DNA from: a bacterium
GTDB taxonomy: Bacteria > Eisenbacteria > RBG-16-71-46
Assembly (NCBI GenBank): GCA_046076045.1
Contig: JBJTRI010000083.1
Span: 1 to 61,742, forward strand
Reading direction: 5' to 3'
DNA: 61,742 bases
The notes under the pieces are model-generated. The model was not told where the DNA came from and ran no database searches. It worked only from the letters and a program-made list of their open reading frames with translations. The position numbers and the translations under genes were made by a program. Positions 5,293-44,170 of the stretch are shown here, one piece after another (positions within the stretch are counted from its first letter, which is position 1; each line of letters opens with the position of its first letter).

Positions 5293-5296
<4 letters not shown>
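4181..5296 (-). CDS. ABC-2 type exporter permease (YbhR/YbhS-like)
   Basis: KEFVQMRRD, LIFGFAI, IVRERETGTLEQLIVTP, LLSGFMFPREAMP; GTG 5296 overlaps the ATPase stop. Confidence 0.92.
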
Positions 5297-6032
<736 letters not shown>

Positions 6033-6036
<4 letters not shown>

Positions 6037-7001: not shown

Positions 7002-7002
7002 C

Positions 7003-7848: not shown

Positions 7849-7940
7849 GGACAGCAAGCTAGCGCGTTCTCCCGCGAGGTGCCAATTGTGAATCACCCAC
7901 GGGGGTCCATCGGGTACCACCCATGGCCCGGGGTGCCCGC

Positions 7941-8203
7941 CCGGACCCGGTCGCGCCCGGGTGCCGGAACCGCTCGCGCCCGGGCGCCCGAACCGCCCCG
8001 CCCGCGTCCGCGTTCTGAACTACCCTCACTAGCGACCCGGGGCCCGAACCGTTCCGTTCGCGTCCATATCCCCGAACCGCCCCACCCGCGTCGCCCGAGC
8101 CCGCCCGCCTGCGTCCGTGTCCCGCGCCCGCCCGCCCGCGTCCGAGTCCCGAACCACCCCACCCGCGCCAGGTGTCCCTGCGCCCGCTCACGCGCGTCCG
8201 TGT
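7941..8203. repeat. Degenerate tandem array, ~10 units of 23-29 bp, consensus approx. CCCGAACCGCCCCGCCCGCGTCCGTGT
   Basis: Units start near 7941, 7964, 7987, 8014, 8043, 8071, 8094, 8121, 8148 and 8176; head-to-tail with no unique spacers. Confidence 0.75.
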
Positions 8204-8302
8204 CCCCGGCCCGCCCTCCGGTGGTGGCCGCTTGAGCGCTTGCCGCGCCTGTCCCACAGTCCTGTGGCGGTTCCTGCCACCCGTCCACTCCTCGGAGGTC
8301 CC

Positions 8303-9676
8303 ATGTCGCGCCGCATCCTCCCGCTCCTGCTCCTCGCCGTCGCGCTCGCCGTTCCCGCGGCCGCCGCGCCGCGGGCCGCGTCCCCGACCGCGCCCGCGCT
8401 CACGCCCGAGTCGTGGCCGGTCGAGCGCTACACGCTCGACAACGGCATCACCGTGATCCTGCGTCAGGACCGCACCGTGCCCGCGGTCTGCTTCTGGCAG
8501 TGGTTCAAGGTCGGTTCGCGCAACGAGCGCCAGGGCATCACCGGTCTGTCGCACTTCTTCGAGCACATGATGTTCAACGGTTCGCGCAACGTGCCGCCCA
8601 AGGAGTACGACCGGCGGCTCGAGTCGCGCGGCGCCTACTCGAACGCGTTCACGAGCTACGACATGACCGCGTACTACGAGGAGGGTGGCCCCGACGCGCT
8701 CGACACCATGATGGAGCTCGACTCGGATCGCATGCGCGAGTTGCTCATGGAGCCTGCGATCCTCAAGAGCGAGGTCGAGGTCGTGCGCGAGGAGCGCCGC
8801 TTCCGCACCGACAACTCGGTCTCAGGGCTGCTCGACGAGGCGCTGTACACGACCGCATTCCAGGCCTCGCCCTACGGCTGGCCCGTCGTGGGTTACATGA
8901 AGGACCTCGAGCGCATCACGCGCGACGAGATGCTGGAGTACTTCCGCACCTACTACGCGCCCAACAACTGCATCCTGGTGCTCGTGGGCGACTTCGACGT
9001 CGCGCACGCCAAGGCGCGCATCCAGCACTGGTTCGGCTCGCTGCCCGCGCAGACGCCGCCGCCCGCACCGGTCAACAGCGAACCCGAGCAGAAGGGCGAG
9101 CGTCGCGCCGAGGTGCGGCATCCGGCCGAGAACGTGTCGTTCGCGGTCGGCTACAAGGCACCCGGCGTGAAGAGCGACGACCAGTGGACGCTCGACGTCC
9201 TCTCGCTCGTGCTCGCCGGCGGTGAGTCGTCGCGCCTGCACCAGGCGCTCGTCTACGACCAGCAGATCGCGCTCTCGGCCAACGCCGGCTACCGCGCCGG
9301 GCTCGAGCCGGGTCTGTTCGAGTTCTTCGTCGAGCTCAAGCCGGGCCAGGAGCTGGCCGCGGGCGAGCGCGCGCTGTACGCCGAGATCGAGCGGCTCGCG
9401 AAGGAGGGCCCGAGCGAGCGCGAGCTGCAGAAGGCGCGCAACCAGGCCGAGGCGCAGTTCGTGCAGAACCTCAAGACCAACAACGGCGCCGGTCGCACGC
9501 TCGGCTTCTACGAGCACGTACACGGCGACTACCGCAGGATGTTCGGGGCGATCGAGCGCTACCGCGCCGTGACCGCCGAGGACTGCCGCCGCGTCGCGCG
9601 CGAGGTGTTCGACTCGCAGCGCCGCACGGTCGCGTTCCTGACGCCGCTCGAAGTGGGGAAGGAGGCCCAGCGATGA
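8303..9676 (+). CDS. M16 (pitrilysin-family) zinc peptidase, catalytic subunit, secreted
   Basis: Signal peptide; HFFEH (HXXEH), NAFT, EVEVVREERR; GGAGG RBS before ATG 8303. Confidence 0.92.
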   Translation: MSRRILPLLLLAVALAVPAAAAPRAASPTAPALTPESWPVERYTLDNGITVILRQDRTVPAVCFWQWFKVGSRNERQGITGLSHFFEHMMFNGSRNVPPKEYDRRLESRGAYSNAFTSYDMTAYYEEGGPDALDTMMELDSDRMRELLMEPAILKSEVEVVREERRFRTDNSVSGLLDEALYTTAFQASPYGWPVVGYMKDLERITRDEMLEYFRTYYAPNNCILVLVGDFDVAHAKARIQHWFGSLPAQTPPPAPVNSEPEQKGERRAEVRHPAENVSFAVGYKAPGVKSDDQWTLDVLSLVLAGGESSRLHQALVYDQQIALSANAGYRAGLEPGLFEFFVELKPGQELAAGERALYAEIERLAKEGPSERELQKARNQAEAQFVQNLKTNNGAGRTLGFYEHVHGDYRRMFGAIERYRAVTAEDCRRVAREVFDSQRRTVAFLTPLEVGKEAQR

Positions 9677-12418: not shown

Positions 12419-13451
12419 CCCGGTCGGCGAGTTCGAGCGCATCCGCGCCATCGTCGCCGCGCTGCCGGCGGGCGACGGCGTGGTGGTGGGCCCCGGCGAC
12501 GACGCCGCGGTGCTGCGCCCCACGCCGGGCCACGACCTCGTGGTGACCACCGACACGTTCGTCGAGGGGCGTCATCTCCGACGCGAGTTGTGCTCGCCGA
12601 CCGAGGCGGGCTCGCGCTTCGCGGCCGCGAACCTGTCGGACCTCGCGGCCATGGGTGCGCGACCGCGCTGGGCGGTGCTCGCGCTCGTGCTGCCGGCGTC
12701 GTGGACCCCGGCGGCCGCCGCGGCGTTCGAGCATGCGTGCGCGCACGCGCTCGCGGCCGACGGGGCCGCGATCGTGGGCGGCAACCTGTCCTCGGGTGAC
12801 ACGTTCTCGGCCACGCTCACGCTGTTCGGCGAGTGCGCGCGCGACGCGGCGTGGCGGCGTTCGGGTGCGCGGGACGGCGACGTGCTCGCGGTCACGGGTT
12901 CGCCGGGCGGTGCCGGGGCGTTCGTGGCGCTGGCGCTGTGGGGCTCGCCGCCGTCGCGCGAGCACGTGCCCGCTGCGCTCGTCGAGCGCTTCGTGTCGCC
13001 ACCGTCGCGCGTGGCGTTCGCGCAAGCGTTGGCCCCGCTCGGTGCGGTGCGGGCCGCGATCGACGTGAGCGACGGGCTGGTGGCCGACCTCGCGCACCTG
13101 ACCGAGGCCAGTGGCGTGGGCGCAGTGCTCGCCGCGGACGCGCTGCCGGCCGATGACGCGCTGCGCGAGGCGGCCCGCCGGTTGTCGGCGTTCGCGGGCC
13201 AGGAGCGCGGGCCCCTGCCCGCGGGCGAGGCGGGCTTCCTGCGCCACCTCGTGACCGGGCCGAGCGACGACTACGAACTGCTGCTCGCGCTCGACCCGGC
13301 GCGAGTCGAGGAGGTGCGAGCGATCGCCACCGCGCACGGTGTGCCGCTGCACGTCATCGGGCGCCTGGTCGCGGGGAGCGGCGTCGCGCTGGACGGCGGT
13401 CGCGGCCCCGAGCCCCTCGTGGCGCGCGGGTGGGACCACTTCGCGTCCTGA
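12411..13451 (+). CDS. thiL: Thiamine-monophosphate kinase ThiL
   Basis: GEFERI, GPGDDAAV, NLSDLAAMGA, AIDVSDGL, DDYELL, C-terminal GWDHF. Confidence 0.95.
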   Translation: MPDPVGEFERIRAIVAALPAGDGVVVGPGDDAAVLRPTPGHDLVVTTDTFVEGRHLRRELCSPTEAGSRFAAANLSDLAAMGARPRWAVLALVLPASWTPAAAAAFEHACAHALAADGAAIVGGNLSSGDTFSATLTLFGECARDAAWRRSGARDGDVLAVTGSPGGAGAFVALALWGSPPSREHVPAALVERFVSPPSRVAFAQALAPLGAVRAAIDVSDGLVADLAHLTEASGVGAVLAADALPADDALREAARRLSAFAGQERGPLPAGEAGFLRHLVTGPSDDYELLLALDPARVEEVRAIATAHGVPLHVIGRLVAGSGVALDGGRGPEPLVARGWDHFAS

Positions 13452-13544
13452 AGCTGCACGGCGTTCGTTACGCGTGAACCGTCTGCGCCACAAGTCGTTG
13501 TTCGTTGTGACGCGCACCCGGCTTCCACTATCCTCCTACGCACC

Positions 13545-14513
13545 ATGACCCTCTCGACCCCGATCACCCGTCTCGCGAGCGCACTGCTGTCGCTCGTCCT
13601 GTTCGCAGGTTGCTCCGACCTCGGCGCTCCCGTCGCCCCCCGCATCGTGCTGTCCGAGTCCGCGCTCGCGTTCGGGGCCACGGTCGTGGGCGGCTCGGTG
13701 GTGCGCACCCTCTCGGTCTCGAACACCGGTACCGGCAGGCTGCGAGGCGATGCCGCTCTCGAGTCGTGCGACGGGTTCGCCATCACGGCCGGCGGGGGCG
13801 CGTTCGACGTGCCGCCCGGCGGCCGTCACGACATCGAGGTCACCTTCACCGCGCCCGTGATCGGCGACGTGTCGTGCGAGCTCGCACTCGGTGCCGGTCT
13901 GCCGCGCGTGCCGCTCACCGGTACCGGCCTGCAGCAGGCCACCGGTGCGGTGTGCGCGGTGTCGGTGTCGTCACTCGACTTCGGTTCGCTCCCGGTCGGG
14001 ACCAGCCGGCTGCTCGTGTTCCGCGCGCGCAGCGTGGGCACCGCTCCGGTCAACCTCGACGTCCTCTCGAGCTGTCCGTCGTTCGCGGTGTTGAGCGGCG
14101 CCGGGCCGCGCACGCTCGCGCCCGGGGACTCGGTCACGGTGACCGTGGAGTTCCGCCCGACCACGGGTGGCCTGCAGCAGTGCACGATCGCGACCGGTCC
14201 GGGCTGCCCGGTCGTCTCGGTGCTCGGCGTCGGAACCACGGTGTCGTTCGCCACCACCCTGCGGCCCATGCTGCAGGCGCGCGGGTGCACGGGTTGCCAC
14301 GGCTACTCGAGCACGGCGCAGTTGGTGAACGTCCCGAGCGGTGCCGGGGCCCCGCTCATCAAGCCGTTCGATCCGAACGGCTCCGTCCTCTACGCCCGCA
14401 TCGCCAATCTCGGCACGCTCGGTCGCGCCATGCCGCCTGGCACGACCGGACTCAACGCCGCCGAGCGTCAGGCCTGGCGCGACTGGATCCTCGAGGGCGC
14501 GCAGAACAACTGA
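13545..14513 (+). CDS. Lipoprotein with two Ig-like (ASH/choice-of-anchor-D-type) domains and a C-terminal monoheme cytochrome c (planctomycete-cytochrome-like)
   Basis: Lipobox LFAGC; repeats LAFGAT.VG...SNTGTG and LDFGSLPVG...VEFRP; VSF...RPML...CTGCH...P.DP.GS.LY.RI...MPP...W..WI.EGA. Confidence 0.8.
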   Translation: MTLSTPITRLASALLSLVLFAGCSDLGAPVAPRIVLSESALAFGATVVGGSVVRTLSVSNTGTGRLRGDAALESCDGFAITAGGGAFDVPPGGRHDIEVTFTAPVIGDVSCELALGAGLPRVPLTGTGLQQATGAVCAVSVSSLDFGSLPVGTSRLLVFRARSVGTAPVNLDVLSSCPSFAVLSGAGPRTLAPGDSVTVTVEFRPTTGGLQQCTIATGPGCPVVSVLGVGTTVSFATTLRPMLQARGCTGCHGYSSTAQLVNVPSGAGAPLIKPFDPNGSVLYARIANLGTLGRAMPPGTTGLNAAERQAWRDWILEGAQNN

Positions 14514-14596
14514 TCGTCTCGGGTTCGCGGCGTGCGAACCGTCGCTCCCGTCCCGCGGTCGGTCGTGACCGCGCATTCTTCACCGGAGACCGTCCC

Positions 14597-15718
14597 ATGT
14601 CCCGTCCGCTTCCCGTCCGCCTCCTGGCCCCGGCGCTCGTCGTCGCGGTGTCCTGCCTCGTCGTCGCGGTCGCGACCGCAGTGCCGCGCTACTCGGCGCG
14701 CGCCGAGCAGGACTGCAAGCTGTGCCACGTCTCGCCCGGCGGTGGCGGCATGCGCACGGCGTACGCGGTCGAGGAGTTGATCCCGAAGGAGCTGGCGATG
14801 TCGGCGCACCGCCCCGAGGCGTTGGTGGGGCTCGAGACGCGACTCAACAAGGTCGTGCGCGTGGGCGCGGACTTCCGTCAGCAGTTCATGCTCGAGGACG
14901 AGACCGCGCCAGCGGCGGCCGTGCAGGGGTTCTTCCCCATGCAGGGCGACCTGCACCTGTCGTTCCAGCTCGACCCGCGCCACCTGTTGTTCTACCGCCG
15001 CGGCACCACGAGCCTGCAGGAGTTCGGCTGGCAGGGGCAGGTGCTGCCGTATGACGGCCACGTGCGCGCCGGCCGGTTCGTGCCGTCTTACGGCTGGCGC
15101 TTCGACGACCACACCATGTACGTGCGCGACGACCTCGGTTTCGCGCCGCCCGCCAACTCCGATGCCGGCGTCGAGGTGGGCTTCTCGCCCAAGCACGGCG
15201 ACCTGCGCGTGTCGCTGGTCAACGGCAACCGCGGCGGCCTGCTCGACAACGATCGCCGTTTGGTGGTGGCGGCCACGGGCGGCTTCCGGTTCCGCTTCGG
15301 GTCGGCCGCGGCCTACGTGGGCGCGCAGGGTTGGAGCCAGCCGGGCCTGAACGAGGACTTCACCATGGCCGGCGTGCACGGCTCGGTCGCGCTCGGCAAG
15401 TTCACGTGGGTGGGCCAGTACGATCGCACGCGCCGCGACCCGGTGGTGGGTCGCGACCTCGAGACCACGGTGTCGTCGCACGAGTTCAGCGTCGAGCTCG
15501 AGCGCGGCGTGGAACTGCTCGGCACGTTCGACTGGTACGACCCCGACCGCGACCTCGCGAGCGGGTACCGTCAGCGCTGGGGCGCGGGTGCGCAGCTCAT
15601 GCCGCTGCCGTTCATGAGCGTGCGCGCCATGCTGCGCCGCACCGACGTGCATGCGGGTCCCGCGCTCGGCGGACAGGACGGCTCCGAGGCGCTGTTGCAG
15701 CTCCACCTGCTCTACTGA
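14597..15718 (+). CDS. Outer-membrane beta-barrel with an N-terminal monoheme CxxCH (Cyc2-like cytochrome-porin fusion)
   Basis: Signal peptide, then PRYSARAEQDCKLCH; remainder shows amphipathic beta-strand patterning and ends in an aromatic residue (LLQLHLLY). Confidence 0.75.
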   Translation: MSRPLPVRLLAPALVVAVSCLVVAVATAVPRYSARAEQDCKLCHVSPGGGGMRTAYAVEELIPKELAMSAHRPEALVGLETRLNKVVRVGADFRQQFMLEDETAPAAAVQGFFPMQGDLHLSFQLDPRHLLFYRRGTTSLQEFGWQGQVLPYDGHVRAGRFVPSYGWRFDDHTMYVRDDLGFAPPANSDAGVEVGFSPKHGDLRVSLVNGNRGGLLDNDRRLVVAATGGFRFRFGSAAAYVGAQGWSQPGLNEDFTMAGVHGSVALGKFTWVGQYDRTRRDPVVGRDLETTVSSHEFSVELERGVELLGTFDWYDPDRDLASGYRQRWGAGAQLMPLPFMSVRAMLRRTDVHAGPALGGQDGSEALLQLHLLY

Positions 15719-32015: not shown

Positions 32016-32602
32016 GAGGGCGGCGCGACGGTAGCCGGAACGGCCGCGGTGGGGAAGCCCGGGGCGCGGGCGGTGGGTGGGTCCGCTGCGACGGCACCGT
32101 CCACGCCTTCGGGCTCTGGTCGCCGTCGGCCCGCCCGAGCGGTGTCCCGGCACGGGACGGTACGGCGCCCGCGATTCCCACGGCACACGGCCCGGTCCGG
32201 TCCGCCACGCCGGAATCGCGCTCTCGACGTGCCGCTATCGCGCCCTGTCGGGTTCGCCAAGTGGGTTCAGGTCGTCGCCGTGGCGGTGTCGCCCGCCGCG
32301 CTCCGCCTGGCCCGCCACGCCGGTTCGGGTTCTCGGGTAGGCCTTGCGGCCCGCCGGCACCCGGTTCGCCCCCTCGAGGTGGCCATGCCGGTCGGCCCTG
32401 CACCAGCCCTCTCCATATAGGTGCCCGTGCGGAACGCACCGCCGCCACCCGCCCCGGCCGCCGGATTTTTGCAGCCGCGTGACACCGCCCGCGTTTCCGG
32501 GTGTCAGGCTCACCTACGCAGGACGATATTGGATGGGGGGCCTCGCCGTCCCCTGTCGCCCCCGCAGCTCGTCACGGTTCACCTACCGGGAGGTCGTTCC
32601 CC

Positions 32603-33457
32603 ATGAAGTCGCTGCGTCTCCCCATGCTCGTGATGGTCGCCCTGATGGCGACGGTGTCCGCGTCCTTCGCCTGTCCGTCGTCCAAGACCGCGACCACCGC
32701 CGACGCGAAGGGTGCGAGTGTCGCGCCGGCCGTGGCCAGCAAGGGTTCGGTGCCCGCGGTGCCCGCGAGCGGCGGCTGCTCGGCCGAGGCGATCCGCGTG
32801 AAGGGTGCGTCGGCGTCGGGCCACGGCTGCTCGGCCGAGATGGCCGCACAGTGCACGCCGGCCATGCGCGAGGCGTGCGCCAAGAACCCCAAGGTGGCGG
32901 CTGCGATGGGCTGCGACCCGAGCGGCAAGGGCACCACGGTGACCGCGGCGGCGCAGGGCTCGAAGGGCTCGGGCGTCAAGGTGGCGGCGGCCTCGTCGGG
33001 TGACCACTGCGGCATGAAGGGCGCGTCGGCGAAGGGTGCCACCGCGGGCGGCAAGGAGTGCTCGGCGCACGCGAACGCCGCGGCGCACGACTGCTCGCCG
33101 TGTGCGGACTGGGTGGGCTGCGAGAAGGACGTGCGCGCGCTCAAGGCCAAGTCGCAGGTCGTCGCGCTCAAGAACGGCGTCATGGTCGTGTACACGGCGG
33201 ATCGCGCTGCGGACGTGCGTTCGCTGCAGTCCGCGGTCGCCAAGCGCCACGAGCGCATGGCTGCGGCGCTCTCGAGCACCGACACCAAGAAGCTGTGCGA
33301 CGATTGCCGGACGATGCGCGGCGCGATGGCGAGCGGTCGTCTCACCCGGGAGATCGTGAACGTGGAGAGCGGCTGCATGACGCTCATCACGTCCGAGGAC
33401 AAGAGCATCGTGCGCATGATCCGCACCATGACGGGCCAGCCGGTCGCGATGCGCTGA
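32603..33457 (+). CDS. Secreted Cys-rich hypothetical protein
   Basis: GGAGG RBS; signal peptide; 14 Cys including two CxxC; Ala/Ser/Lys low-complexity N-half; codon usage matches real genes. Confidence 0.8.
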   Translation: MKSLRLPMLVMVALMATVSASFACPSSKTATTADAKGASVAPAVASKGSVPAVPASGGCSAEAIRVKGASASGHGCSAEMAAQCTPAMREACAKNPKVAAAMGCDPSGKGTTVTAAAQGSKGSGVKVAAASSGDHCGMKGASAKGATAGGKECSAHANAAAHDCSPCADWVGCEKDVRALKAKSQVVALKNGVMVVYTADRAADVRSLQSAVAKRHERMAAALSSTDTKKLCDDCRTMRGAMASGRLTREIVNVESGCMTLITSEDKSIVRMIRTMTGQPVAMR

Positions 33458-33476
33458 GCTCGGCCATGTGTGGTTT

Positions 33477-33515
33477 CGAGGGGCCGCCGCTCACCGCGAC
33501 GGCCCCTCGCTCTTT
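33477..33515 (+). terminator. Rho-independent terminator candidate after the Cys-rich gene
   Basis: Stem CGAGGGGCCG/CGGCCCCTCG followed by CTCTTT. Confidence 0.65.
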
Positions 33516-33568
33516 GCGGCCGCGTCCGGGGCTTGGCGCGCCGCCCCCCACAACCTAGGGTGGTGCCC

Positions 33569-35125
33569 ATGCCGATCCCCCGCCCGTCGTTCCTGCCGCG
33601 CTCCCGCCAGCTCCGGCTCGTCCTGCTCATCCTGGCCGTCGCGCTGCCCGCGCTGGTGCTGGCGGTGACCGGCGTGCTGCTCACCCTGCGCATCGGCCAT
33701 CAGGTCGAGGTCGACGCCCGCCGCTACCACCAGTACGTGGCGGAGCTCGTGGCCGAGGTCTTCGAGCGCGAGCTGGTGGACCAGGTGCGCGACTCCATCG
33801 CCTCGGCCGAGACCGCCGCGCGCGAGACCGGCGACCTCGAGGCCGTGCGCCGCGCGCTCGCGACGCGCGTCCGACTGTACGAGGCTCCGTACGTCATCCC
33901 GTTCGAGGAACTCAACGACGCGGCCGCGCGCCCGGTCGACGGCCGGTTGCTGTTGTACGGCGAGGACCCGAGCGGTCGGCGGCATCACCCGTACGCGGTC
34001 ATGCTGCTCAACGGCCCGGATGGCGTCACGCTCTGTGGCGCCGGGTACTGGTTCAACCCGCGGGCGTTCCTGTCCAGCACCCTCCGCGACGTGGTCGTCG
34101 AGCGCCTGCCGAAGCAGGCCGGCATGTACGGCACGATCAAGCTGTTGCGTGACCTCAGCATCTCGGTGGTGGACGACGATGGCCACGAGTTCGCGCGCAT
34201 GCGCGAGGGCGCGCTGCCCGAGGCGGCGGTCGAGCATCCCATGAAGGGCCCGTTCGAGGGCTATCGCGTGCGCGTCACCTCCACGCCGGGTTCGGCCGTC
34301 GAGGCGGCACGCCGACTGGTGTTCGTCGAGGTCGTGTTCATCGGCGTGCTCACGCTGGTTTTGTTGGGCGCGATCGCGGTGGGGGTGCGCTACATCGCGC
34401 GGCAGGTCGAGGTGCTCAACACCAAGACCAGCTTCGTCTCCAACGTGACGCACGAGCTCAAGACCCCGGTCTCGGTGATCAAGTTGGCGGTCGAGACGCT
34501 CGAGATGAATCGGTTCCGCGACGACCGGGAGCGCGAGAAGTACCTGCGCACAATCACGCGCGAGAGCGACCGTCTGGCCCAACTGGTGGACAACATCCTC
34601 GACTACTCGCGCCTCGAGGCCGGGCAGAAGCAGCTGCACAAGTCGCCGACCGACCTGCGCAACGTGGTGAACTCCGCCATGGACAGCTTCCGGCTGCGTC
34701 TCGACGATGCCGGTTTCAAGACCGAGGTCTGGCTGCCCGAGGCGCTGCCGCCGGTCATGGCCGACGAGCGCGCGCTCACCCACTGCCTGCTCAACCTGCT
34801 CGACAACGCGGTCAAGTACTCGCGCGACCGCCGCGAGGTGCGGGTCTCGGTGGGTTCGCGCGACGGCATGGTGACCCTGTCGGTGGCCGACCGCGGGATC
34901 GGTATCCCGCTGGAGGACCAGGAGCGGGTGTTCGAGAAGTTCGCCCGGGCCGAGACCGGGCTGGTCCACGATGTGAAGGGGGCCGGTCTGGGGCTGTCGC
35001 TTGTCCAGATGCTGGTTCGGGCGCATCATGGGCGCGTCGAACTGGTGAGTACGCCCGGCGAGGGGAGCACGTTCACCATCCTCCTGCCGGTGTGGGACGG
35101 TGGCCAGGGGGTCGTTCCGGCCTGA
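33569..35125 (+). CDS. Membrane sensor histidine kinase (HisKA/HATPase)
   Basis: Two TM around a periplasmic domain; H-box THELKTP, NLLDNAVKYS, DRGIGI, GAGLGL, GEGSTF. Confidence 0.95.
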   Translation: MPIPRPSFLPRSRQLRLVLLILAVALPALVLAVTGVLLTLRIGHQVEVDARRYHQYVAELVAEVFERELVDQVRDSIASAETAARETGDLEAVRRALATRVRLYEAPYVIPFEELNDAAARPVDGRLLLYGEDPSGRRHHPYAVMLLNGPDGVTLCGAGYWFNPRAFLSSTLRDVVVERLPKQAGMYGTIKLLRDLSISVVDDDGHEFARMREGALPEAAVEHPMKGPFEGYRVRVTSTPGSAVEAARRLVFVEVVFIGVLTLVLLGAIAVGVRYIARQVEVLNTKTSFVSNVTHELKTPVSVIKLAVETLEMNRFRDDREREKYLRTITRESDRLAQLVDNILDYSRLEAGQKQLHKSPTDLRNVVNSAMDSFRLRLDDAGFKTEVWLPEALPPVMADERALTHCLLNLLDNAVKYSRDRREVRVSVGSRDGMVTLSVADRGIGIPLEDQERVFEKFARAETGLVHDVKGAGLGLSLVQMLVRAHHGRVELVSTPGEGSTFTILLPVWDGGQGVVPA

Positions 35126-37347: not shown

Positions 37348-38418
37348 TCACGCGCGGGCGCGGTCCTCGCCGTGGTCGAGCGCCTCGCGGGCCATCTCGC
37401 GCGCATACGGGTCGGGTGAGCGCGCCGCGACCTCGCACAGCGCGTCCACGCCGTCGCCCCCGATCGCGGCGAGCGCGTAGGCCGCATGGCGACGCACCCA
37501 CCACGCGCGGTCGGTGAGCCGGTCGGCGAGCGCGTCCACCGCAGGCGAGGCCCCGAGTCGTCCGAGCGCCTGCGCGGCGATCGCGCGCACCGGCCATTGC
37601 GCATCGGTGAGCGCCATGAGCAGCGCGGGGGTGGACTCGGCCATGCCGAGCCGCCCGAGCGCGCGGGCGGCCGAGACGCGCACCTCGAGGTGCGGGCTCG
37701 ACAGCCGCTGGTCGAACGCGCCGCGCGCCGACCGACAGCGCGTGAGCCCCAGCGCGTCCACGCACGCGCACTCGAGTCGCGTGTCGGCGAGTCCGCGCTG
37801 GAGCGCGATGAGCAGCAGCGAACGGCCCGCGGGCCCGAACGCGCGCAGCATGCCGGAGAGCGCCGGGATGGGGCGGGCGCCGAGGGCCTGCGGATGCTCG
37901 AGCACCCAACGCAGCGCTCGCAGGTCGCGGTGACGCGCGAGCGCGCGCGCGGCCGCGAACGTCACCTGTGGCGGACCGCTCACCAGTGCGCGGCGCAGCG
38001 CCGTGCGCGAGCGCGCGTCGGGCAGCAGGCCGAGTCGCTGGGCCGCGCGTTCGCGCCGCTCGGGCGGTGCGGGCGACAGCAGCACGGTGCGCTCGCGCGC
38101 GAGGTGGGAGCTGCGCGCGAGTTCGCGGGCGAGCTCGCGGCGCTCGCGGGGGCGCAGGTGGGTGGCCATGGTCTCGACCGCGTCCCAGAACGGCTCGTGC
38201 TCGGTGCGGGCGGCGGCGCGGCGCAGGTCGCGCCCGGCGATGCGGCCCGCCAGCCGGGCCCCGAGCAGGCGGAAGAGTTCACCCGTACGCAACCGCCCGG
38301 CCTCGCGCCGGGCGCGGGCGAGCGCGCGCACCACCAGCACGACGAGCGCTATCGTCGCGAGCGGGACCGCGATCGAGAGCGCGAGGACGACCCAGAACGG
38401 GGTTTGGGACACGGCCAT
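37348..38418 (-). CDS. HEAT-repeat protein with N-terminal TM
   Basis: Repeats such as EVRVSAARALGRLG, WPVRAIAAQALGRLG, WWVRRHAAYAL. Confidence 0.85.
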   Translation of the reverse strand: MAVSQTPFWVVLALSIAVPLATIALVVLVVRALARARREAGRLRTGELFRLLGARLAGRIAGRDLRRAAARTEHEPFWDAVETMATHLRPRERRELARELARSSHLARERTVLLSPAPPERRERAAQRLGLLPDARSRTALRRALVSGPPQVTFAAARALARHRDLRALRWVLEHPQALGARPIPALSGMLRAFGPAGRSLLLIALQRGLADTRLECACVDALGLTRCRSARGAFDQRLSSPHLEVRVSAARALGRLGMAESTPALLMALTDAQWPVRAIAAQALGRLGASPAVDALADRLTDRAWWVRRHAAYALAAIGGDGVDALCEVAARSPDPYAREMAREALDHGEDRARA

Positions 38419-38501
38419 ATCCCTCATCATCGTCCGCCCCAGCGCCGACTTGATGGGTGATAACACCCGCCTTCACATGGGGTTCGGACGACGCCTAATC
38501 G

Positions 38502-38531
38502 TTGACATCGCCGCGCACGGCTTCTTACCAT
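38502..38531 (+). promoter_or_regulatory. sigma70-type promoter of the pyrrolyl-PCP operon
   Basis: TTGACA-N18-TACCAT in an AT-richer divergent intergenic region; inverted repeat GGGTG-ATAA-CACCC at 38455-38468 upstream. Confidence 0.65.
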
Positions 38532-38577
38532 CAATGTCCCCTGTCTTCTTTCCGTAGCGCCTCCCGGAGCCATCCCC

Positions 38578-39453
38578 GTGGCCGCCCCCGCTCCCTCCCC
38601 CTCGGCGCCGGCATTCAGCCGTGCCGCCGCTCCCGAGACGCCGTTCCTCCTGGAATCCGATGGATTCCCGGTCTACGCCGTCCTGCACTCCGCCGCCCCC
38701 GGACGCCCCGACGCGCCGGTGGTGGTGCACGTGCACGGGTTGGGTGTCGAGCAGATCACGCTCTACCGCCAGGAGGTGCTGGTCGCCCGTGCGGCCGCCG
38801 CGCGCGGGCTGCCCGCGCTGCGCTGGCATGCGCGCGGTCACGGCGATTCGGCCGGCTCCAGCGCCGACGTGCGATTCGCCACGCTGGTGGCCGACGCCCG
38901 CGCCGCCGCCGACGAGGCCCGCGCCCGCACGGGGGCGCGCCGCGTGATCTGGTTGGGCGTGCGTCTGGGCGCGCTGGTGGCCGCGCACGCGGCCGCGGGG
39001 CGCGACGACACCGCCGGTTTCGTGCTGTGGGAGCCGGTCGCACGGCCCGCCGACTTCTTCCGACTCCAACTGCGCACGCTGCTGTTCTCGCAGGTCGCGG
39101 GCGGGCGCAAGCCCGACGCCACCGTGGACCAGTTGCTCGCGCGGCTCGAGCACGACGGCGAGCTCGACGTGCTCGGCTACACGCTGCACCGCGACACGGT
39201 CGCGAGCTTCGGGGACGCCGCGCTCGCACCCGCACTGGTCGCGGCCGCCGCCCCGGTGCGGATCGCGCAGGTGCAGGGACGCGCCAAGCTGGCGCCGGCC
39301 CACGCGCAACTCGTCGAGGCGCTGGGTGCGAGCGCCGACGTGCGCACCGAGCTGCTGTCCGAGGAACCCGGCTACCAGCTCATGACGAATCCCGCCTGGC
39401 AGTGCGACGCGCTCACGCGCATCACCGTGGAGTGGCTCGATGCCCTGGCGTGA
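38578..39453 (+). CDS. Alpha/beta hydrolase-fold protein, exosortase-A-associated hydrolase-2 type
   Basis: LRWHARGHGDSAG, nucleophile elbow GVRLG (Arg at the Ser position), VLWEPV..P..F...LR, ELDVLGYTL. Confidence 0.78.
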   Translation: MAAPAPSPSAPAFSRAAAPETPFLLESDGFPVYAVLHSAAPGRPDAPVVVHVHGLGVEQITLYRQEVLVARAAAARGLPALRWHARGHGDSAGSSADVRFATLVADARAAADEARARTGARRVIWLGVRLGALVAAHAAAGRDDTAGFVLWEPVARPADFFRLQLRTLLFSQVAGGRKPDATVDQLLARLEHDGELDVLGYTLHRDTVASFGDAALAPALVAAAAPVRIAQVQGRAKLAPAHAQLVEALGASADVRTELLSEEPGYQLMTNPAWQCDALTRITVEWLDALA

Positions 39454-40378
39454 GACCCCCGCGGAACTGGCGCGCGCGCGCGCGGAGCAGCCGGTGGCGT
39501 TGCCGACGCCGCTCGGCACGCTGTTCGGCATCCACACCCCGCCCGATCCCGCGGCCCCGCGCGCGGCGCACGCCGTGGTGCTGTTCACGCGCCCGCGCTC
39601 GCACCGCAACCGCATGTGGGTCGAGGCCGCGCGCCGACTGGCCGTGCGCGGGTTCGGGACCTACCGCTTCGACTACCACGGTGCGGGCGACTCCGAGGGC
39701 GTGACCGCGTTCCTCGACCCCAACCGGCCGTACCGCGACGACACCGACGCCGTGCTGGGCATGCTGCGCGAGCGCTACGGCTACGAGCGCTTCCTCGTGG
39801 TGGGTTCGTGCTTCGACGCACGCACCGCGATGTCGTCGTTCGTCACGAACGGCGAGCGCGTGGACGGACTGGTGTTCTTCGCCGCGCCCGTCATGGAGCT
39901 CGACACGCTGGTGAAGGCGCACGCCGACCGCAAGGACTGGCGCCACCTCGTGCGCGCGCTCGGCAACCCCGAGAACTGGCGCACGCTGGGCGACCCCGAG
40001 CGCTGGCGCTACATGGCCACCGTGGTGGGGCGCGTGGCGCGCGGCGGGGCGCGCAACGGCGCGCGCAACGACACGCCGCTCGCGGACAGCTTCGTGGAGC
40101 ACTTCCGCGCGCTGGTGCGCGCGCGCGCCCGGGCGCTGTTCGTGTACGGCGAGGCCGACGCGGAGTACGCTTCGTTCAAGGTCGCGCTGGAGACGGTGTT
40201 CCCGCGACTGTCGCCCGCCGAGCGCGAGCGGCTCGAAGTCGAGTTGTGGCCGGGCGACGTGCACGGCTTCCTCAACATCCCGCTGCAGCGCCGGGCGCTC
40301 GAACGCACGCTCGACTGGCTGTCGCGCTTCCATCCGCAGGCCCCGGCGGCTCCCGCCCCGGGTGCCGGGGGTTCGTGA
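39440..40378 (+). CDS. Alpha/beta hydrolase-fold protein, exosortase-A-associated hydrolase-1 type (Cys nucleophile)
   Basis: RNRMWVEAARRLA..G..TYRFDYHGAGDSEG, elbow GSCFDA, YGEAD acid region, DVHGF His. Confidence 0.78.
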   Translation: MPWRETPAELARARAEQPVALPTPLGTLFGIHTPPDPAAPRAAHAVVLFTRPRSHRNRMWVEAARRLAVRGFGTYRFDYHGAGDSEGVTAFLDPNRPYRDDTDAVLGMLRERYGYERFLVVGSCFDARTAMSSFVTNGERVDGLVFFAAPVMELDTLVKAHADRKDWRHLVRALGNPENWRTLGDPERWRYMATVVGRVARGGARNGARNDTPLADSFVEHFRALVRARARALFVYGEADAEYASFKVALETVFPRLSPAERERLEVELWPGDVHGFLNIPLQRRALERTLDWLSRFHPQAPAAPAPGAGGS

Positions 40379-40381
40379 TCC

Positions 40382-41527
40382 ATGGACTTCGAACTCACCG
40401 CCGAGCAGCAGGAGTTGCGCGACGCCGTGCGCGCGTTCGCCCGCGAGGAGCTGAACCACGACCTCGAGGCGCGTGACGAGTCCGGCGAGTTCCCGCGCGC
40501 GGAGTGGCGCAAGTGCGCCGAGTTCGGCGTGCTCGGACTGCCCGTGCCGACCGAGTACGGCGGTCAGGCGCAGGACCTCGTCACGACCACCATCGCCATG
40601 GAGGCGCTGGGCTGGGGCTGCCGCGACAACGGTCTCGTGTTCTCGCTCAACGCCCAGATGTGGGCGGTGCAGATGCCGCTCGTGCACTACGGCAGCGAGG
40701 AGCAGAAGCGCGCGTGGCTCCCGCGCCTGGTGAGTGGTGAGCTCGTGGGCGCGCACGCCATCACCGAGCCCAACGCCGGCTCCGACGTGTTCTCGCTCAC
40801 CACGCGCGCCGAGCGTCGCGACGGTGGCTACGTGCTCAACGGGCAGAAGACGTTCGCCACCAACGCCCCGGTCGCCGACCTCGCGCTGGCGTTCGCCTAC
40901 CTGCAGCGCGACGGGCAGAAGCCCGCGCTGACCGCGTTCCTCGTGCCGCGCGACACGCCCGGGGTGACGTTCGGCAAGCCCATCCCCAAGATGGGCCTTC
41001 GCACCTCGCCCATGGGTGAGGTGGTGTTCGAGGACTGCTTCGTGCCCGAAGCGGCACGACTGGGGCCCGAGGGCGCGGGCATGCGCATCTTCAACTCCGC
41101 CATGGAGTGGGAGCGCGCCTGCATCTTCGCCGGCCATCTCGGTGCCATGGAGCGCCTGCTCGACGACTGCATCGCGTACGCGCGCAAGCGCCGCCAGTTC
41201 GGCCAGCCGATCGCCAAGTTCGAGTCGGTGGCCGACTCCATCGCCGACATGAAGGTGGCGATCGAGGCCGGTCGCTGGCTGCTCTACAAGGTGGGTTGGC
41301 TCGCGGGTCGCGGCAAGAACGCGGTGCTCGAGGCTGCCATGGCCAAGCTGTTCGTGAGCGAGATGCACAAGAAAGCCGCGCTCGACGCGCTGCAGTTGCA
41401 CGGCGGTTACGGCTACATGAAGGAGTACCCGATCGAGCGCGAGGTCCGGAACGCGCTCGCGGGCACGCTGTACTCCGGCACCAGCGAGATCCAGCGCCGC
41501 ATCATCGCGCGCTGCCTCGGTCTCTAG
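40382..41527 (+). CDS. Acyl-CoA dehydrogenase family; L-prolyl-PCP dehydrogenase-like (PltE/RedW/CloN3 type)
   Basis: W.KCAEFG..GL.VP.EYGG, EALG.GC.D.GL.FS, TEPNAGSD, MEWERACIFA.HLGAMERLL, RRQFGQPI, LYSGTSEIQR. Confidence 0.88.
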   Translation: MDFELTAEQQELRDAVRAFAREELNHDLEARDESGEFPRAEWRKCAEFGVLGLPVPTEYGGQAQDLVTTTIAMEALGWGCRDNGLVFSLNAQMWAVQMPLVHYGSEEQKRAWLPRLVSGELVGAHAITEPNAGSDVFSLTTRAERRDGGYVLNGQKTFATNAPVADLALAFAYLQRDGQKPALTAFLVPRDTPGVTFGKPIPKMGLRTSPMGEVVFEDCFVPEAARLGPEGAGMRIFNSAMEWERACIFAGHLGAMERLLDDCIAYARKRRQFGQPIAKFESVADSIADMKVAIEAGRWLLYKVGWLAGRGKNAVLEAAMAKLFVSEMHKKAALDALQLHGGYGYMKEYPIEREVRNALAGTLYSGTSEIQRRIIARCLGL

Positions 41528-41537
41528 GGGAACCTCC

Positions 41538-43136
41538 ATGGACCGCCTGCTCCCACGACTCGTCACACAGGCCGCGCAGCGCAATCCCGCTGCGCCGGCG
41601 GTCGTCATGGACGGCGTCACGCTCGACTACGGCACGCTGGAGGCCCGCTCCAACCGCTTCGCGCGCTCGCTCGTGGCGCACGGCGTGCGCCGGGGCGACC
41701 GCGTCGCGCTGTGGCTGCCCAAGTCGCCCGACGCGATCGTGGCGCTTTACGGGATCATGAAGGCCGGTGCGGCCTACGTGCCCGTGGACCCGGCGGCGCC
41801 CGCGCCGCGTCTGGCGTACATCGCCCGCGACTGCGAGGTGGCCGGGCTGGTGACGACGCGCGACCGCGCGGCCGCACTCGACGAGGCGTTCGCGGGCCGG
41901 GCGCCGATGCGCGCGCTGTGGTTCGCCGACCTCGACGACCCGCGCGCTGAGACGCCGCGCGTCGCCGGGCTGCCCGGCGTGCCGTGGGCGGCGCTCGCCT
42001 CCGAAGGCGCGCAGGCGTTCCATTCGCCCGCACTCGAGGACGACCTCGCCTACATCCTGTACACGAGCGGCAGCACGGGCGAGCCCAAGGGCGTCATGTT
42101 GTCGCACCGCAACTGCCGCGTGTTCACCGACTGGGCGGCCGAGAGCTACGCGCTCACGCCCGCCGATCGCGTGGCGAACCAGGCACCGTTCCACTTCGAC
42201 CTCTCGACCTTCGACCTGTACGCCACCGCGTACGCGGGTGCCGCGGTGTACCCGGTGAGTCCGCGCATCGCCTCGTTCCCGTCGGCGGTCGCGATGCGCT
42301 GGGCACAGGACCGCTTGAGTGTGTGGTACTGCACGCCCAGCTCGCTCGTGCTCATGATGACGCGCGGCGGGCTCGAGAAGCACGACCTGTCGGCGCTGCG
42401 CGTGCTGTTGTTCGCGGGCGAGGTGTTCCCGAACAAGTACCTGCGCCAGCTCATGGCGCTGGCGCCGCACGCGCGCTTCGCCAACCTGTACGGGCCCACC
42501 GAGACGAACGTCTGCACGTGGTACGACGTGCCCGAGCCGCCGGCCGACGACGTCGCGCTGCCGATCGGGCGGGCGTGCCCGTTCGACGAGGCGTTGGTGC
42601 TCGACGAGTCGCTGCGGCGCGTGCCGCAGGGCGGCGTGGGTGAGTTGTGGATCCGCGGCGCCTCGGTCATGCAGGGCTACTGGGGCCGCCCCGAGCGTTC
42701 GGCGCTCGTGATCCAGACCGTCGAGGTGGAGCCCGGTCTGCACGACCGCGCCTACCGCACGGGCGACCTCGTGCGCGAGCGCGCCGACGGCAACCTCGAG
42801 TTCCTGGGTCGTCGCGACCATCAGGTGAAGACCCGCGGCTACCGCGTCGAGTTGGGCGAGATCGAGACGCGACTGGCGTCGCACCCGGCCGTGGACGAGG
42901 TCGTGGTGGTGGCGGTGCCCGACGAGGAGGTCACCAACCGCCTGCGCGCGGTCGTGGTCGTGAAGCCCGACGCGGTCGTGGGCGTGGACGAGCTCAAGCA
43001 GCACTGTGCCGCGACGCTGCCGCGTTATATGGTCCCGGAGGCCGTGGAGTTCCGCGGCAGCCTGCCCCGAACGAGCAGCGGCAAGGTGGATCGCCGTGCG
43101 CTCGCCGAAGCCGACCCCACGAAGGAAGCGCGATGA
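41538..43136 (+). CDS. Stand-alone amino acid adenylation enzyme, predicted L-proline-activating (PltF/RedM type)
   Basis: AYILYTSGSTGEPKGV, FHFDLSTFDLY, LFAGEVFP, NLYGPTETNVC, YRTGD, GYRVELGEIE, PRTSSGKVDR; specificity code read by eye as DLFYLALVCK. Confidence 0.88.
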   Translation: MDRLLPRLVTQAAQRNPAAPAVVMDGVTLDYGTLEARSNRFARSLVAHGVRRGDRVALWLPKSPDAIVALYGIMKAGAAYVPVDPAAPAPRLAYIARDCEVAGLVTTRDRAAALDEAFAGRAPMRALWFADLDDPRAETPRVAGLPGVPWAALASEGAQAFHSPALEDDLAYILYTSGSTGEPKGVMLSHRNCRVFTDWAAESYALTPADRVANQAPFHFDLSTFDLYATAYAGAAVYPVSPRIASFPSAVAMRWAQDRLSVWYCTPSSLVLMMTRGGLEKHDLSALRVLLFAGEVFPNKYLRQLMALAPHARFANLYGPTETNVCTWYDVPEPPADDVALPIGRACPFDEALVLDESLRRVPQGGVGELWIRGASVMQGYWGRPERSALVIQTVEVEPGLHDRAYRTGDLVRERADGNLEFLGRRDHQVKTRGYRVELGEIETRLASHPAVDEVVVVAVPDEEVTNRLRAVVVVKPDAVVGVDELKQHCAATLPRYMVPEAVEFRGSLPRTSSGKVDRRALAEADPTKEAR

Positions 43137-43387
43137 ACCTGACCCCGACCGAAGCCACCGTCCGCCAGTTCCTCGTCGAGGACGTGTTCTACGACCAGGA
43201 CCTCAAGGACCTCGGCCCCGACGACTCGCTGCTCGAGAAGGGGCTGCTCGACTCGATGGCCATCCTGAAGACGGTGACCTTCTGCGAGGAGCAGTTCGGC
43301 GTCACGATCCCCGACGAGGACGTGCTGCCCGACCACTTCGAGAGCGTCCGCGCCATCGCGCAGCTCGTGGAGCGCGTGCGCGGCTGA
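43133..43387 (+). CDS. Peptidyl/acyl carrier protein (PltL/RedO-like)
   Basis: 84 aa acidic protein; GLLDSM phosphopantetheine site; FGVTIPDEDVLPDHFES. Confidence 0.9.
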   Translation: MNLTPTEATVRQFLVEDVFYDQDLKDLGPDDSLLEKGLLDSMAILKTVTFCEEQFGVTIPDEDVLPDHFESVRAIAQLVERVRG

Positions 43388-43402
43388 GCTCGCCCCGCCC
43401 GG

Positions 43403-44170
43403 TCAGTGCGCGATCGGCAGCCGGAACAGGTCCTTGGCGTTGCGCCGCGTGATCGTGACCGCCTGCTCGGGCGTCCAGTCGCGCAACGTGCACAGGCGTG
43501 CGATCACCCGGGTGAGCAGCGACGGTTCGTTGCGGCGCAGCGAACGCGGCTCGGGTTCCAGATAGGGCGCGTCGGTCTCGAGCACCAGCATGTCCTCGGG
43601 GGCGTTGCGCACCGCCTCCTCGAGCGCGGCGTGGCCGTAGGTGAGCACGCCACCCAGCCCGAGCTTGAAGCCGAGGGCCCGGGCGCGTTCCACGGTGGCC
43701 GCGTCCTCGTCGAAGCAGTGCAGCACGCCACCGGCCTGCGGGCGCGCCTCCTCGAGGATGGCCAGCGTGCGCGCGAGCTCGCTGCGCTGGTGGATCACCA
43801 CCGGCAGCCCGACCTCGTCGGCCAGCGCCAGTTGCGCGCGGAACCACGCCTCCTGAGCCTCGAGCGGTGCGTAGTCGCGGAACGTGTCGAGCCCGATCTC
43901 GCCGATCGCCACCACGCGCGGGTGCCGCGCGTGCTCGCGCAGGGTGGGCAGGTGCTCGAGCCCCACCTTGCCGGCCGAGTTGGGGTGCACGCCCACCGCG
44001 AGGAACACGTTGGGGTGCTCGGCCGCGAGTGCGAACGCCCGGTCCCAGATGTCGGGCTCGTAGGCGATCTCGACCAGATGGGTCACGCCCACGTGCCGCG
44101 CGCGATCGAGGACCGCGGTGCGGTCCTTGTCGAAGCGCTTGTCGCACAGGTGGACGTGGGTGTCGATCAT
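43403..44170 (-). CDS. tatD: TatD-family nuclease
   Basis: IDTHVHL, GVHP, IGEIGLD, VIHQR, LHCF, LETDAPYL, RNEP. Confidence 0.94.
   Translation of the reverse strand: MIDTHVHLCDKRFDKDRTAVLDRARHVGVTHLVEIAYEPDIWDRAFALAAEHPNVFLAVGVHPNSAGKVGLEHLPTLREHARHPRVVAIGEIGLDTFRDYAPLEAQEAWFRAQLALADEVGLPVVIHQRSELARTLAILEEARPQAGGVLHCFDEDAATVERARALGFKLGLGGVLTYGHAALEEAVRNAPEDMLVLETDAPYLEPEPRSLRRNEPSLLTRVIARLCTLRDWTPEQAVTITRRNAKDLFRLPIAH

Follow-up and report, generated by a model that had tools for sequence, protein, structure and literature searches.

The conversion of proline to pyrrole by a trio of adenylation (A) domain, dehydrogenase and carrier protein is textbook natural-product chemistry. In the anatoxin-a pathway the dehydrogenase AnaB reportedly stops at dehydroprolyl-ACP (ACP, acyl carrier protein) and feeds a polyketide synthase (PKS); the Bmp1 thioesterase, an enzyme of the alpha/beta fold, releases a pyrrole acid from its carrier with no PKS involved; CouN7, whose nucleophile is Ser, works as one protein and takes its acyl group from a second carrier, CouN1/CloN1; and SyrC and CmaE combine the alpha/beta fold with an active-site Cys. 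To our knowledge, the exosortase A-associated hydrolases have been catalogued for years without any chemistry having been proposed for them. CouN7/CloN7 of the aminocoumarins are reported to acylate a sugar hydroxyl with pyrrole-2-carboxyl taken from a carrier protein (PMC8748450, PMC11218499), and CmaE is reported to shuttle an aminoacyl group from a carrier thioester (PMC8748450). Here we analyze a stretch of 61,742 nucleotides (contig JBJTRI010000083.1; the whole stretch is called the window below) from an uncultivated freshwater bacterium whose closest protein and locus relatives are metagenome-assembled genomes (MAGs) of Candidatus Eisenbacteria, and we describe in it, at positions 38578-43387, an operon of five genes by which proline is most likely converted, on a small carrier, into a pyrrole acid. 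We give about even chances to the fuller reading, in which the operon is a self-contained route resembling type II nonribosomal peptide synthetases (NRPSs), with proline oxidized on the carrier and then off-loaded to an acceptor by a pair of hydrolase-fold proteins, one bearing Cys and the other Arg at the nucleophile position.

The operon and its putative promoter comprise the following features:

38502..38531, + strand: sigma-70-like promoter site TTGACA-N18-TACCAT (10/12 consensus positions)
38578..39453, + strand: hyd2-like alpha/beta-fold protein, 291 amino acids (aa), GVRLG elbow with Arg129 (TIGR03101, Hydrolase_4)
39440..40378, + strand: hyd1-like alpha/beta hydrolase, 312 aa, GSCFD elbow with Cys124 (TIGR03100, Hydrolase_4)
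40382..41527, + strand: FAD-dependent enzyme of the acyl-CoA-dehydrogenase family, 381 aa, predicted prolyl-S-carrier dehydrogenase/oxidase (PigA/RedW models)
41538..43136, + strand: stand-alone adenylation enzyme, 532 aa, predicted to be L-proline-specific, pocket DLFYLALVCK (TIGR01733)
43133..43387, + strand: stand-alone carrier protein, 84 aa, LDSM phosphopantetheine-attachment motif (PP-binding)

Since the successive junctions either overlap (by 14 nt between hyd2 and hyd1, and by ATGA between A domain and carrier) or leave gaps of only 3 nt (hyd1 to dehydrogenase) and 10 nt (dehydrogenase to A domain), the five genes form one operon. An earlier sequence-only reading of this DNA had placed five coupled forward-strand genes here behind the same promoter, and on both counts we agree with it: all five genes were located where it put them, their family assignments hold, and the promoter site, which lies in the 105 nt that separate the first hydrolase gene from a divergent HEAT-repeat gene, is the sole promoter-like match in 38000-44000 (1 found; mean of shuffles, 0.0).

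The evidence that the substrate is proline comes first from the A domain, which scores 399.6 bits on the amino-acid adenylation model TIGR01733, above the cut-off of 317.4. For the full-length protein the best single-domain chain in the Protein Data Bank (PDB) is PltF (6o6e, 351 bits); LgrA chains outrank it because two A domains are summed there (243.8 + 216.1 bits). When the pocket segment alone is compared with the PDB, PltF leads with 128.2 bits, followed by the Pro ligase 7thn with 91.3 and DltA with 80.3. The ten pocket positions, anchored on what we take to be the GrsA-PheA numbering, read DLFYLALVCK, a code that had been read by eye and is now reproduced both by the alignment to PltF and by script; in the alignment the corresponding codes are DLLYLALVCK for PltF, DLFYIAWVCK for 7thn and DLMTLCTVAK for DltA (3dhv), that is, nine of ten positions are identical to PltF and five of ten differ from DltA. 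By scripted extraction the code DLFYLALVCK is identical in all 21 complete cassette A domains, three of which lie outside Eisenbacteria. On other models the A domain stays under the cut-off, with 335.2 bits on the exosortase-A ligase (TIGR03098, cut-off 592.35) and 295 bits on DltA (cut-off 476).

The two remaining members of the trio point in the same direction. The dehydrogenase, of the acyl-CoA dehydrogenase (ACAD) family, reaches 431 bits on the PigA model and 417.4 on the RedW model, the next family following at 329.9, and in the PDB it is closest to AnaB (4irn, 403.3 bits over 380 residues), ahead of the PigA-type 5zw0 (309.3), Bmp3 (6cxt_B, 306) and the best generic ACAD (295.9); the motif MEWERACIFAGHLGAM is found in it, and the MEWER segment is common to AnaB. 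The carrier passes the Pfam PP-binding cut-off (29.7 bits; cut-off 20.8) and matches, among solved structures, the peptidyl carrier protein (PCP) 2my5 with 47.1 bits, the Bmp1 carrier 6cxt_A with 43 (E 5e-10), PltL with 37.4 (E 2.8e-8) and PigG with 23.1; its top NCBIfam matches are AmcB and the ornithine-lipid ACP, not a pyrrole carrier model. Entry 6CXT is the Bmp3-Bmp1 pyrrole complex (PMC8857579). The pyrrole-type trio proposed by the sequence-only reading is supported by the pocket, by a dehydrogenase nearest AnaB/PigA/Bmp3 and by a carrier matching Bmp1 and PltL, and these comparisons provide good support for a predicted proline-activating, proline-oxidizing trio of the PltF/PltE/PltL kind. 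As to the end point of the oxidation, we lean modestly toward pyrrole over pyrroline.

The hydrolases are the less familiar half of the cassette. Both are alpha/beta proteins of the Pfam Hydrolase_4 type, and their elbows fall at residues 127-131 (GVRLG) of hyd2 and 122-126 (GSCFD) of hyd1. A search of 1.84 billion cluster representatives returned 3562 relatives of hyd1 at E <= 1e-3 and 763 at E <= 1e-10. Of 142 aligned sequences (the best 150 relatives plus the query, minus 9 fragments without the elbow region), 140 carry Cys as the middle residue of the elbow, G-x-C-x-[G/D]. In an alignment of 40 hyd1 sequences C124 is invariant and H275 is kept in 90% or more. The AlphaFold model of hyd1 (pLDDT 88.5) places C124, D240 and H275 after strands 117-123, 231-237 and 265-270, i.e., at the canonical triad positions after strands 5, 7 and 8, which makes hyd1 the probable catalytic subunit, with a predicted triad of Cys124, Asp240 and His275. 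Profile-profile comparison (hhalign, probability 99.6) identifies the companion hyd2 as a paralogue of hyd1. The R129 of hyd2 aligns with C124 and, in the model of hyd2 (pLDDT 91.6), comes immediately after strand 123-128. Arg is found at the elbow in 71 of the 76 hyd2-type matches in a set of 80 related loci, the rest being 2 His, 1 Lys and 2 shifted by one residue, and no conserved His occurs among the hyd2 relatives. Because Arg occupies the nucleophile position, hyd2 is probably a non-catalytic partner subunit. The earlier suggestion of a Cys-nucleophile hydrolase working with its partner is upheld as regards the Cys, which proves to be a conserved family feature, but has to be modified as regards the partner.

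The label "exosortase-type" that these proteins had been given, by contrast, has to be dropped. Of the named families, the two hydrolases match only TIGR03100 (hyd1, 58 bits against a cut-off of 168.45) and TIGR03101 (hyd2, 88.3 bits against 202.75), and a search of the 96%-complete genome for an exosortase was negative. Nor do any of 16 further hydrolase relatives scanned reach these cut-offs, and an above-cut-off TIGR03101 member was found in none of five genomes with distant pairs. Judged by these scores, hyd1 and hyd2 are distant cousins of the exosortase-A pair, not members of it. Foldseek searches with both models returned generic lipases and feruloyl esterases only (TM 0.55-0.71, identity 21% or less), and an ESM Atlas search with hyd1 returned unnamed alpha/beta-hydrolase clusters only.

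That the two hydrolases act together is suggested by several observations. They are adjacent in 75 of the 80 related loci, and natural hyd2-hyd1 fusions of about 600 aa exist (representatives P0150 and P0165; loci of Myxococcota, Usitatibacter, Rhizobacter and Azospirillum). The predicted hyd1-hyd2 complex has an ipSAE of 0.91, the best control having 0.01, with a partner pLDDT of at least 87 and with runs agreeing in at least 66% of contacts; the mark that this prediction attains is reached by 58 of 80 solved complexes and by 2 of 110 mismatched pairs, and is a rough guide here, where our own alignments were used. The predicted interface is formed by the invariant H-G-x-G-D-S-x-G loops of both subunits together with hyd1 residues 276-283, which adjoin His275. 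The prediction supports a heterodimer of hyd1 and hyd2.

Relatives of the pair are also linked to carrier proteins in settings other than the present one. An Acidimicrobiia MAG (L064, 552-7693) carries a C-A-T-hyd2 fusion followed by hyd1, a gene of the ornithine cyclodeaminase family and a 46%-identical prolyl-type dehydrogenase, the code of its A domain being the Asn-like DLTKIGEVGK; in L071 and L084 C-A-T modules stand immediately upstream of hyd2-hyd1, and L077 encodes a KR-ACP-hyd2 fusion. In these four loci the pair occupies the thioesterase position of an NRPS or PKS. Since the partner A domains of such NRPS/PKS-type loci carry codes other than that for proline (besides the Asn-like one, the Gly-like DILQ.G.I.K), the pair is better regarded as a general off-loading device than as a proline-specific one, and it looks like a general carrier-protein off-loading module that is coupled to other activating enzymes in other lineages. 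Other relatives of the pair have neighbors of the glycan type, which in L044 are a GT4 glycosyltransferase, HlyD and Wzx and in L051 a sulfotransferase and a Wzz-type kinase. The link between hydrolases and trio that the sequence-only reading had drawn from adjacency now finds backing in colinear synteny across phyla, in hyd2-hyd1 fusions, in fusions to carrier domains and in the predicted heterodimer.

The synteny deserves closer description. Among the 80 related loci, 28 have a dehydrogenase of at least 45% identity, 18 have all five genes and 16 have them colinear within 4.66-4.94 kb; because the five genes recur colinearly in 16 of 80 loci, the cassette stands far above chance. Its flanks vary among Eisenbacteria genera, genes read by eye from their translations as aspartate-kinase-like, glycogen-synthase-like and GalT-like replacing HEAT, TatD and MetRS, and from this variation we conclude that the five genes travel as a unit. 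In a first sample of genomes a match was present in 24 of 41 (own family, 21 of 24). In a phylum-wide sample it was present in 36 of 201 genomes, our own counted in (own family, 35 of 86; own genus, 16 of 17), and in none of 114 genomes of 17 other Eisenbacteria families. The distribution is patchy.

Full cassettes outside Eisenbacteria were found in L043, L045 and L047. In L043 (6246-9984), a Candidatus Binataceae MAG, two tandem hyd2-hyd1 pairs are followed by a GH42-like gene and an Ig-domain gene, and the dehydrogenase, A domain and carrier lie about 5 kb downstream of the two pairs. In L045, an unclassified MAG (6416-8005, 13036-14928), the full cassette has an inverted carrier gene and a thiolase-C-like gene before hyd2, and a 631-aa membrane protein adjoins the inverted carrier; this protein has no match in sequence searches of Pfam, NCBIfam and the PDB, and its proximity to MBOAT/AlgI, seen only in the structure and feature search of the ESM Atlas, is a lead and not a finding. 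A search of a plasmid collection with the dehydrogenase returned orphan sets of the trio type in Microvirga and Pseudohalocynthiibacter, with no hydrolase pair at either plasmid set. The Pseudohalocynthiibacter plasmid (L107, 6721-10898) has carrier, dehydrogenase, methyltransferase and A domain beside YjbH/YjbF and a polysaccharide export gene; the Microvirga megaplasmid (L106, 6453-9143) has an A domain and a dehydrogenase at 53.5% identity. Separately, hyd2-hyd1 pairs 61% identical to that of the window are present in L033 and L034, on contigs labelled Verrucomicrobiia and Methylomirabilota, with neighbors that include methylmalonyl-CoA mutase and a beta-oxidation-type ACAD.

What the rest of the genome (3.08 Mb, 188 contigs) contains bears on the destination of the acyl group. 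It had been noted that the window lacks PKS, NRPS condensation domain and halogenase, and this extends to the whole 96%-complete genome, in which there are no condensation domains, no flavin halogenase and no PKS-type ketosynthase, the ketosynthase matches being one full FabF-type enzyme beside AcpP and four short thiolase-like matches. The companion observation on FabH is true of the window but not of the genome, which has two FabH-type genes elsewhere, one in the fab operon on contig C103 and one on C48. The latter (C48, 12621-12890) is recognized by its ACP_syn_III_C domain and stands apart from the fab operon. Three carrier domains were found: AcpP, the cassette carrier and that of a Pls/PosA-like enzyme on contig C91; there are also two phosphopantetheinyl transferases, which could prime the cassette carrier. 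Given a small 3-Mb genome, from an uncultivated phylum, without an assembly line, the product is the pyrrole (or pyrroline) acid itself or its conjugate.

The enzyme on C91 is a 1351-aa open frame (4798-8853; L099, 1326-5354) with A domain, carrier and a Pls/PosA-type membrane terminal domain; it scores 359.8 bits on TIGR02353 (cut-off 423.1), is followed by an Sfp-type phosphopantetheinyl transferase (C91, 9195-9392; L099, about 5317-6234) and looks similar to a homopoly(amino acid) synthetase. Such an enzyme is present in 28 of 86 genomes of our own family. As an obligate partner of the cassette it is ruled out, since it is missing from all 19 genomes that have hyd1 and belong to genera other than that of the window; in one genus, g2, the Pls-like enzyme occurs in 8 of 16 genomes and hyd1 in 2 of 16, with no genome in common.

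The observations above may be assembled into a mechanism of four steps, whose firmness declines from the first to the last. In the first, for which the pocket argues strongly, the stand-alone A domain would activate L-proline with ATP and load it as a thioester onto the 84-aa holo-carrier. In the second, the flavin dehydrogenase would oxidize the prolyl-S-carrier, a substrate to which the comparisons point strongly; the product would be either pyrrolyl-2-carboxyl-S-carrier (four electrons, as with PltE/PigA/Bmp3) or dehydroprolyl-S-carrier (two electrons, as with AnaB). In the third, Cys124 of the presumed hyd1-hyd2 heterodimer, assisted by His275 and Asp240, would accept the acyl group of the carrier, giving an acyl-enzyme thioester, whereas hyd2, which has Arg129 and no conserved His, would have no catalytic part and would act as a scaffold or as the subunit for docking or for binding the acceptor. 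In the fourth and weakest step, the acyl group might be passed to a nucleophile that is not encoded in the operon. Over simple hydrolysis we favor transfer to a hydroxyl or amine that belongs to a component of the cell envelope, to a glycan or to a small metabolite, and we judge transfer to be about twice as probable as hydrolysis. Transfer is favored because the near-universal Cys keeps the acyl-enzyme a thioester, because an inactive partner with an invariant Arg is conserved, and because CouN7/CloN7 set a precedent for moving carrier-bound pyrrole-2-carboxyl to a sugar hydroxyl. It is favored, too, because the pair recurs in glycan contexts, namely L044, L051 and a Burkholderia exopolysaccharide cluster in which a TIGR03100-annotated gene is located (PMC3584217); the MBOAT-like neighbor of the L045 cassette adds to these as a lead from the Atlas. 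The absence of condensation domains, PKS and halogenase from the genome, in turn, favors transfer over the feeding of an assembly line.

Several facts weigh against this account. The dehydrogenase lies under both curated equivalog cut-offs (PigA, 431 vs 500; RedW, 417.4 vs 650), and AnaB, its best solved relative, is known to stop at the pyrroline. Two of the 14 sequences of the closest hyd1 subclade have Gln instead of the expected catalytic His, and the triad is therefore not universal; more generally, the chemistry assigned to the hydrolases rests on motif logic, because neither fold has a close solved relative, and a Cys nucleophile is compatible with hydrolysis too. Beside the cassette in our own genome there is no gene for an acceptor, a glycosyltransferase or a membrane transferase, the flanks being housekeeping (KsgA, TatD, MetRS). 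The 96%-complete genome has no match to exosortase (PF09721) at E <= 0.01, which does not prove its absence, and none to MBOAT (PF03062). No trio accompanies the L033 and L034 pairs in the 9983 and 18906 bases around them; these pairs could reflect mis-binning, gene transfer or service to another carrier system. Finally, contigs from RNA libraries that cover the operon do not prove its transcription, as such libraries can contain DNA.

The alternative that fares best against these data is that the pair is a plain thioesterase and that the operon releases free pyrrole-2-carboxylate or pyrroline carboxylate as a diffusible metabolite. It would account for the place of the pair in L064, L071, L084 and L077, which is that of a thioesterase, for the variation of the flanks by genus with no conserved acceptor-related gene next to the cassette, and for the lack of a downstream assembly line in the genome; the carrier and the dehydrogenase, moreover, resemble Bmp1(CP) and Bmp3, and in the Bmp system a carrier-fused thioesterase releases the product. 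Hydrolytic thioesterases, however, almost always use Ser, whereas 140 of 142 relatives of hyd1 have Cys, and Cys in an alpha/beta fold is linked to acyl transfer or strained-ring formation, as in SyrC, CmaE and the obafluorin and sulfazecin thioesterases. A conserved inactive second subunit with an invariant Arg is likewise hard to explain for plain hydrolysis, and so is the recurrence of relatives of the pair in glycan loci. We consider release by hydrolysis unlikely on balance, while granting it a substantial share of the probability.

Considerably less probable, and in our view improbable, is that some synthetase encoded at another locus, such as the Pls/PosA-like enzyme on C91, receives a pyrrolyl or prolyl starter from the cassette, the hydrolases shuttling or proofreading between carriers in the manner of SyrC and CmaE. 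The genome does hold this one other carrier-bearing synthetase of 1351 aa, followed by its Sfp-type transferase, as well as the second FabH-type gene on C48, and Cys-dependent shuttles of aminoacyl groups from carrier to carrier are known, namely CmaE (PMC8748450) and SyrC. Yet the cassette and the C91 enzyme lie on different contigs, the genome has neither condensation domain nor PKS, and the two systems fail to co-occur, as the 19 hyd1-positive genomes outside the window's genus and the genomes of g2 illustrate.

It is very improbable that the trio does not serve proline at all, the A domain loading some other small amino or acyl acid in the manner of DltA or the exosortase-A ligase and the dehydrogenase carrying out ordinary alpha,beta-desaturation: the scores of the A domain on those two ligase models, the AmcB and ornithine-lipid ACP matches of the carrier and the sub-threshold dehydrogenase are outweighed by a pocket agreeing with PltF at 9/10 positions and differing from DltA at 5/10, by a pocket segment scoring 128 bits on PltF vs 80 on DltA, by a dehydrogenase whose scores on prolyl-carrier dehydrogenases exceed those on every other family by about 100 bits, and by an ornithine cyclodeaminase, a proline-making enzyme, in the related locus L064.

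Returning to off-loading of the oxidized prolyl group onto an acceptor, we note that its ingredients differ in novelty. The trio is of a known kind, the hydrolase pair consists of sub-threshold relatives of a named, unstudied family, and the coupling of the two without an assembly line was not found in the literature searched, which contained neither an account of a trio with a hydrolase pair nor a function for TIGR03100/03101, subscription journals being mostly outside its coverage. The combination, which the sequence-only reading did not recognize as a characterized pathway, is thus one for which we, too, found no description. Its proposal that the hydrolases off-load the pyrrolyl group stands in so far as the trio and the pair are indeed coupled, but it left unnamed two precedents, the Bmp1 thioesterase and the CouN7/CloN7 transfer.

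A bolder generalization, which we advance tentatively and regard as possible but on the doubtful side, is that the Cys/Arg paralogue pair represents a widespread, hitherto undescribed class of heterodimeric acyltransferases for carrier off-loading, which in these Eisenbacteria would install pyrrole-2-carbonyl (or pyrroline) on a cell-envelope polymer. Such a class, with one active and one pseudo-active site, would be a counterpart of thioesterase domains, and different lineages would plug it onto type II NRPS cassettes, NRPS/PKS termini and exosortase-type glycan loci. The findings in any case suggest a testable model for the exosortase A-associated hydrolases, namely a heterodimer of a Cys-active and an Arg-bearing inactive subunit by which acyl groups would be taken off carriers; its scope is given by the occurrence of the pair together with A domains whose codes are for Pro or are Asn-like or Gly-like, and at the ends of PKSs and NRPSs. 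With 763 cluster representatives at E <= 1e-10 the family is large, so that characterizing one pair biochemically would annotate many loci, exopolysaccharide clusters included. If true, pyrrole or pyrroline on a cell-envelope polymer would be a surface decoration not reported in the literature searched.

The setting of the operon in the window, whose G+C content is about 72-77%, can be given briefly. On both sides the neighbors are housekeeping genes unrelated to it. The upstream side has KsgA and a two-component pair besides the divergent HEAT-repeat gene, and the downstream side has a convergent TatD, MetRS, an ECF-type sigma factor and an ABC transporter. Each of the five genes is covered in part by contigs, 95-99% alike, of four riverine RNA libraries; the comparison was made with assembled contigs, from which depth and uncovered stretches are uninformative, and it hints weakly at transcription of the operon in close relatives. 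Elsewhere in the window, at 32501-33693, two candidate open reading frames overlap on opposite strands, 32501-33457 (+) and 32572-33693 (-); both have coding-like GC3, and neither has a Pfam match.

Compared with the described systems, the locus shares parts with several and coincides with none. With the thiotemplated pyrrole modules (PltF/PltL/PltE, PigI/PigG/PigA, RedM/RedO/RedW, Bmp4/Bmp1/Bmp3, CloN4/CloN5/CloN3) it has in common a co-encoded Pro-type A domain, small carrier and ACAD-family dehydrogenase; unlike them, it sits in a genome without PKS, condensation domain or halogenase, its dehydrogenase is below the PigA/RedW cut-offs, and its module has, in place of an assembly line, a Cys/Arg pair of hydrolases as partner. 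The anatoxin-a starter module AnaC/AnaD/AnaB provides, in AnaB (4irn), the closest solved relative of the dehydrogenase, down to the shared MEWER, but here there is no PKS. Bmp1 is alike in its carrier domain, one of the solved structures that the cassette carrier matches best (43 bits); its thioesterase, however, is a single domain fused to the carrier in a pathway that needs a halogenase, whereas the present locus has two separate paralogous proteins with Cys and Arg elbows and no halogenase.

The likeness to CouN7/CloN7 and to SyrC/CmaE lies only in the type of reaction proposed. CouN7/CloN7 differ from our system in that no second carrier is present in the operon; SyrC and CmaE deliver to a second carrier domain and act alone, whereas our operon lacks such a carrier and encodes an obligate inactive partner. 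The Dlt relay (DltA/DltC/DltB/DltD) is set apart by a pocket differing at five of ten positions from that of DltA and by the lack of an MBOAT match in the genome. The exosortase A set (TIGR03100, TIGR03101, the TIGR03098 ligase and an ACP), finally, shows the same arrangement of two adjacent, unlike alpha/beta proteins beside an adenylating enzyme and a carrier, but the scores here are far under its cut-offs (58 vs 168, 88 vs 203, 335 vs 592), no exosortase was found in the genome, and the present cassette has an extra flavin dehydrogenase.

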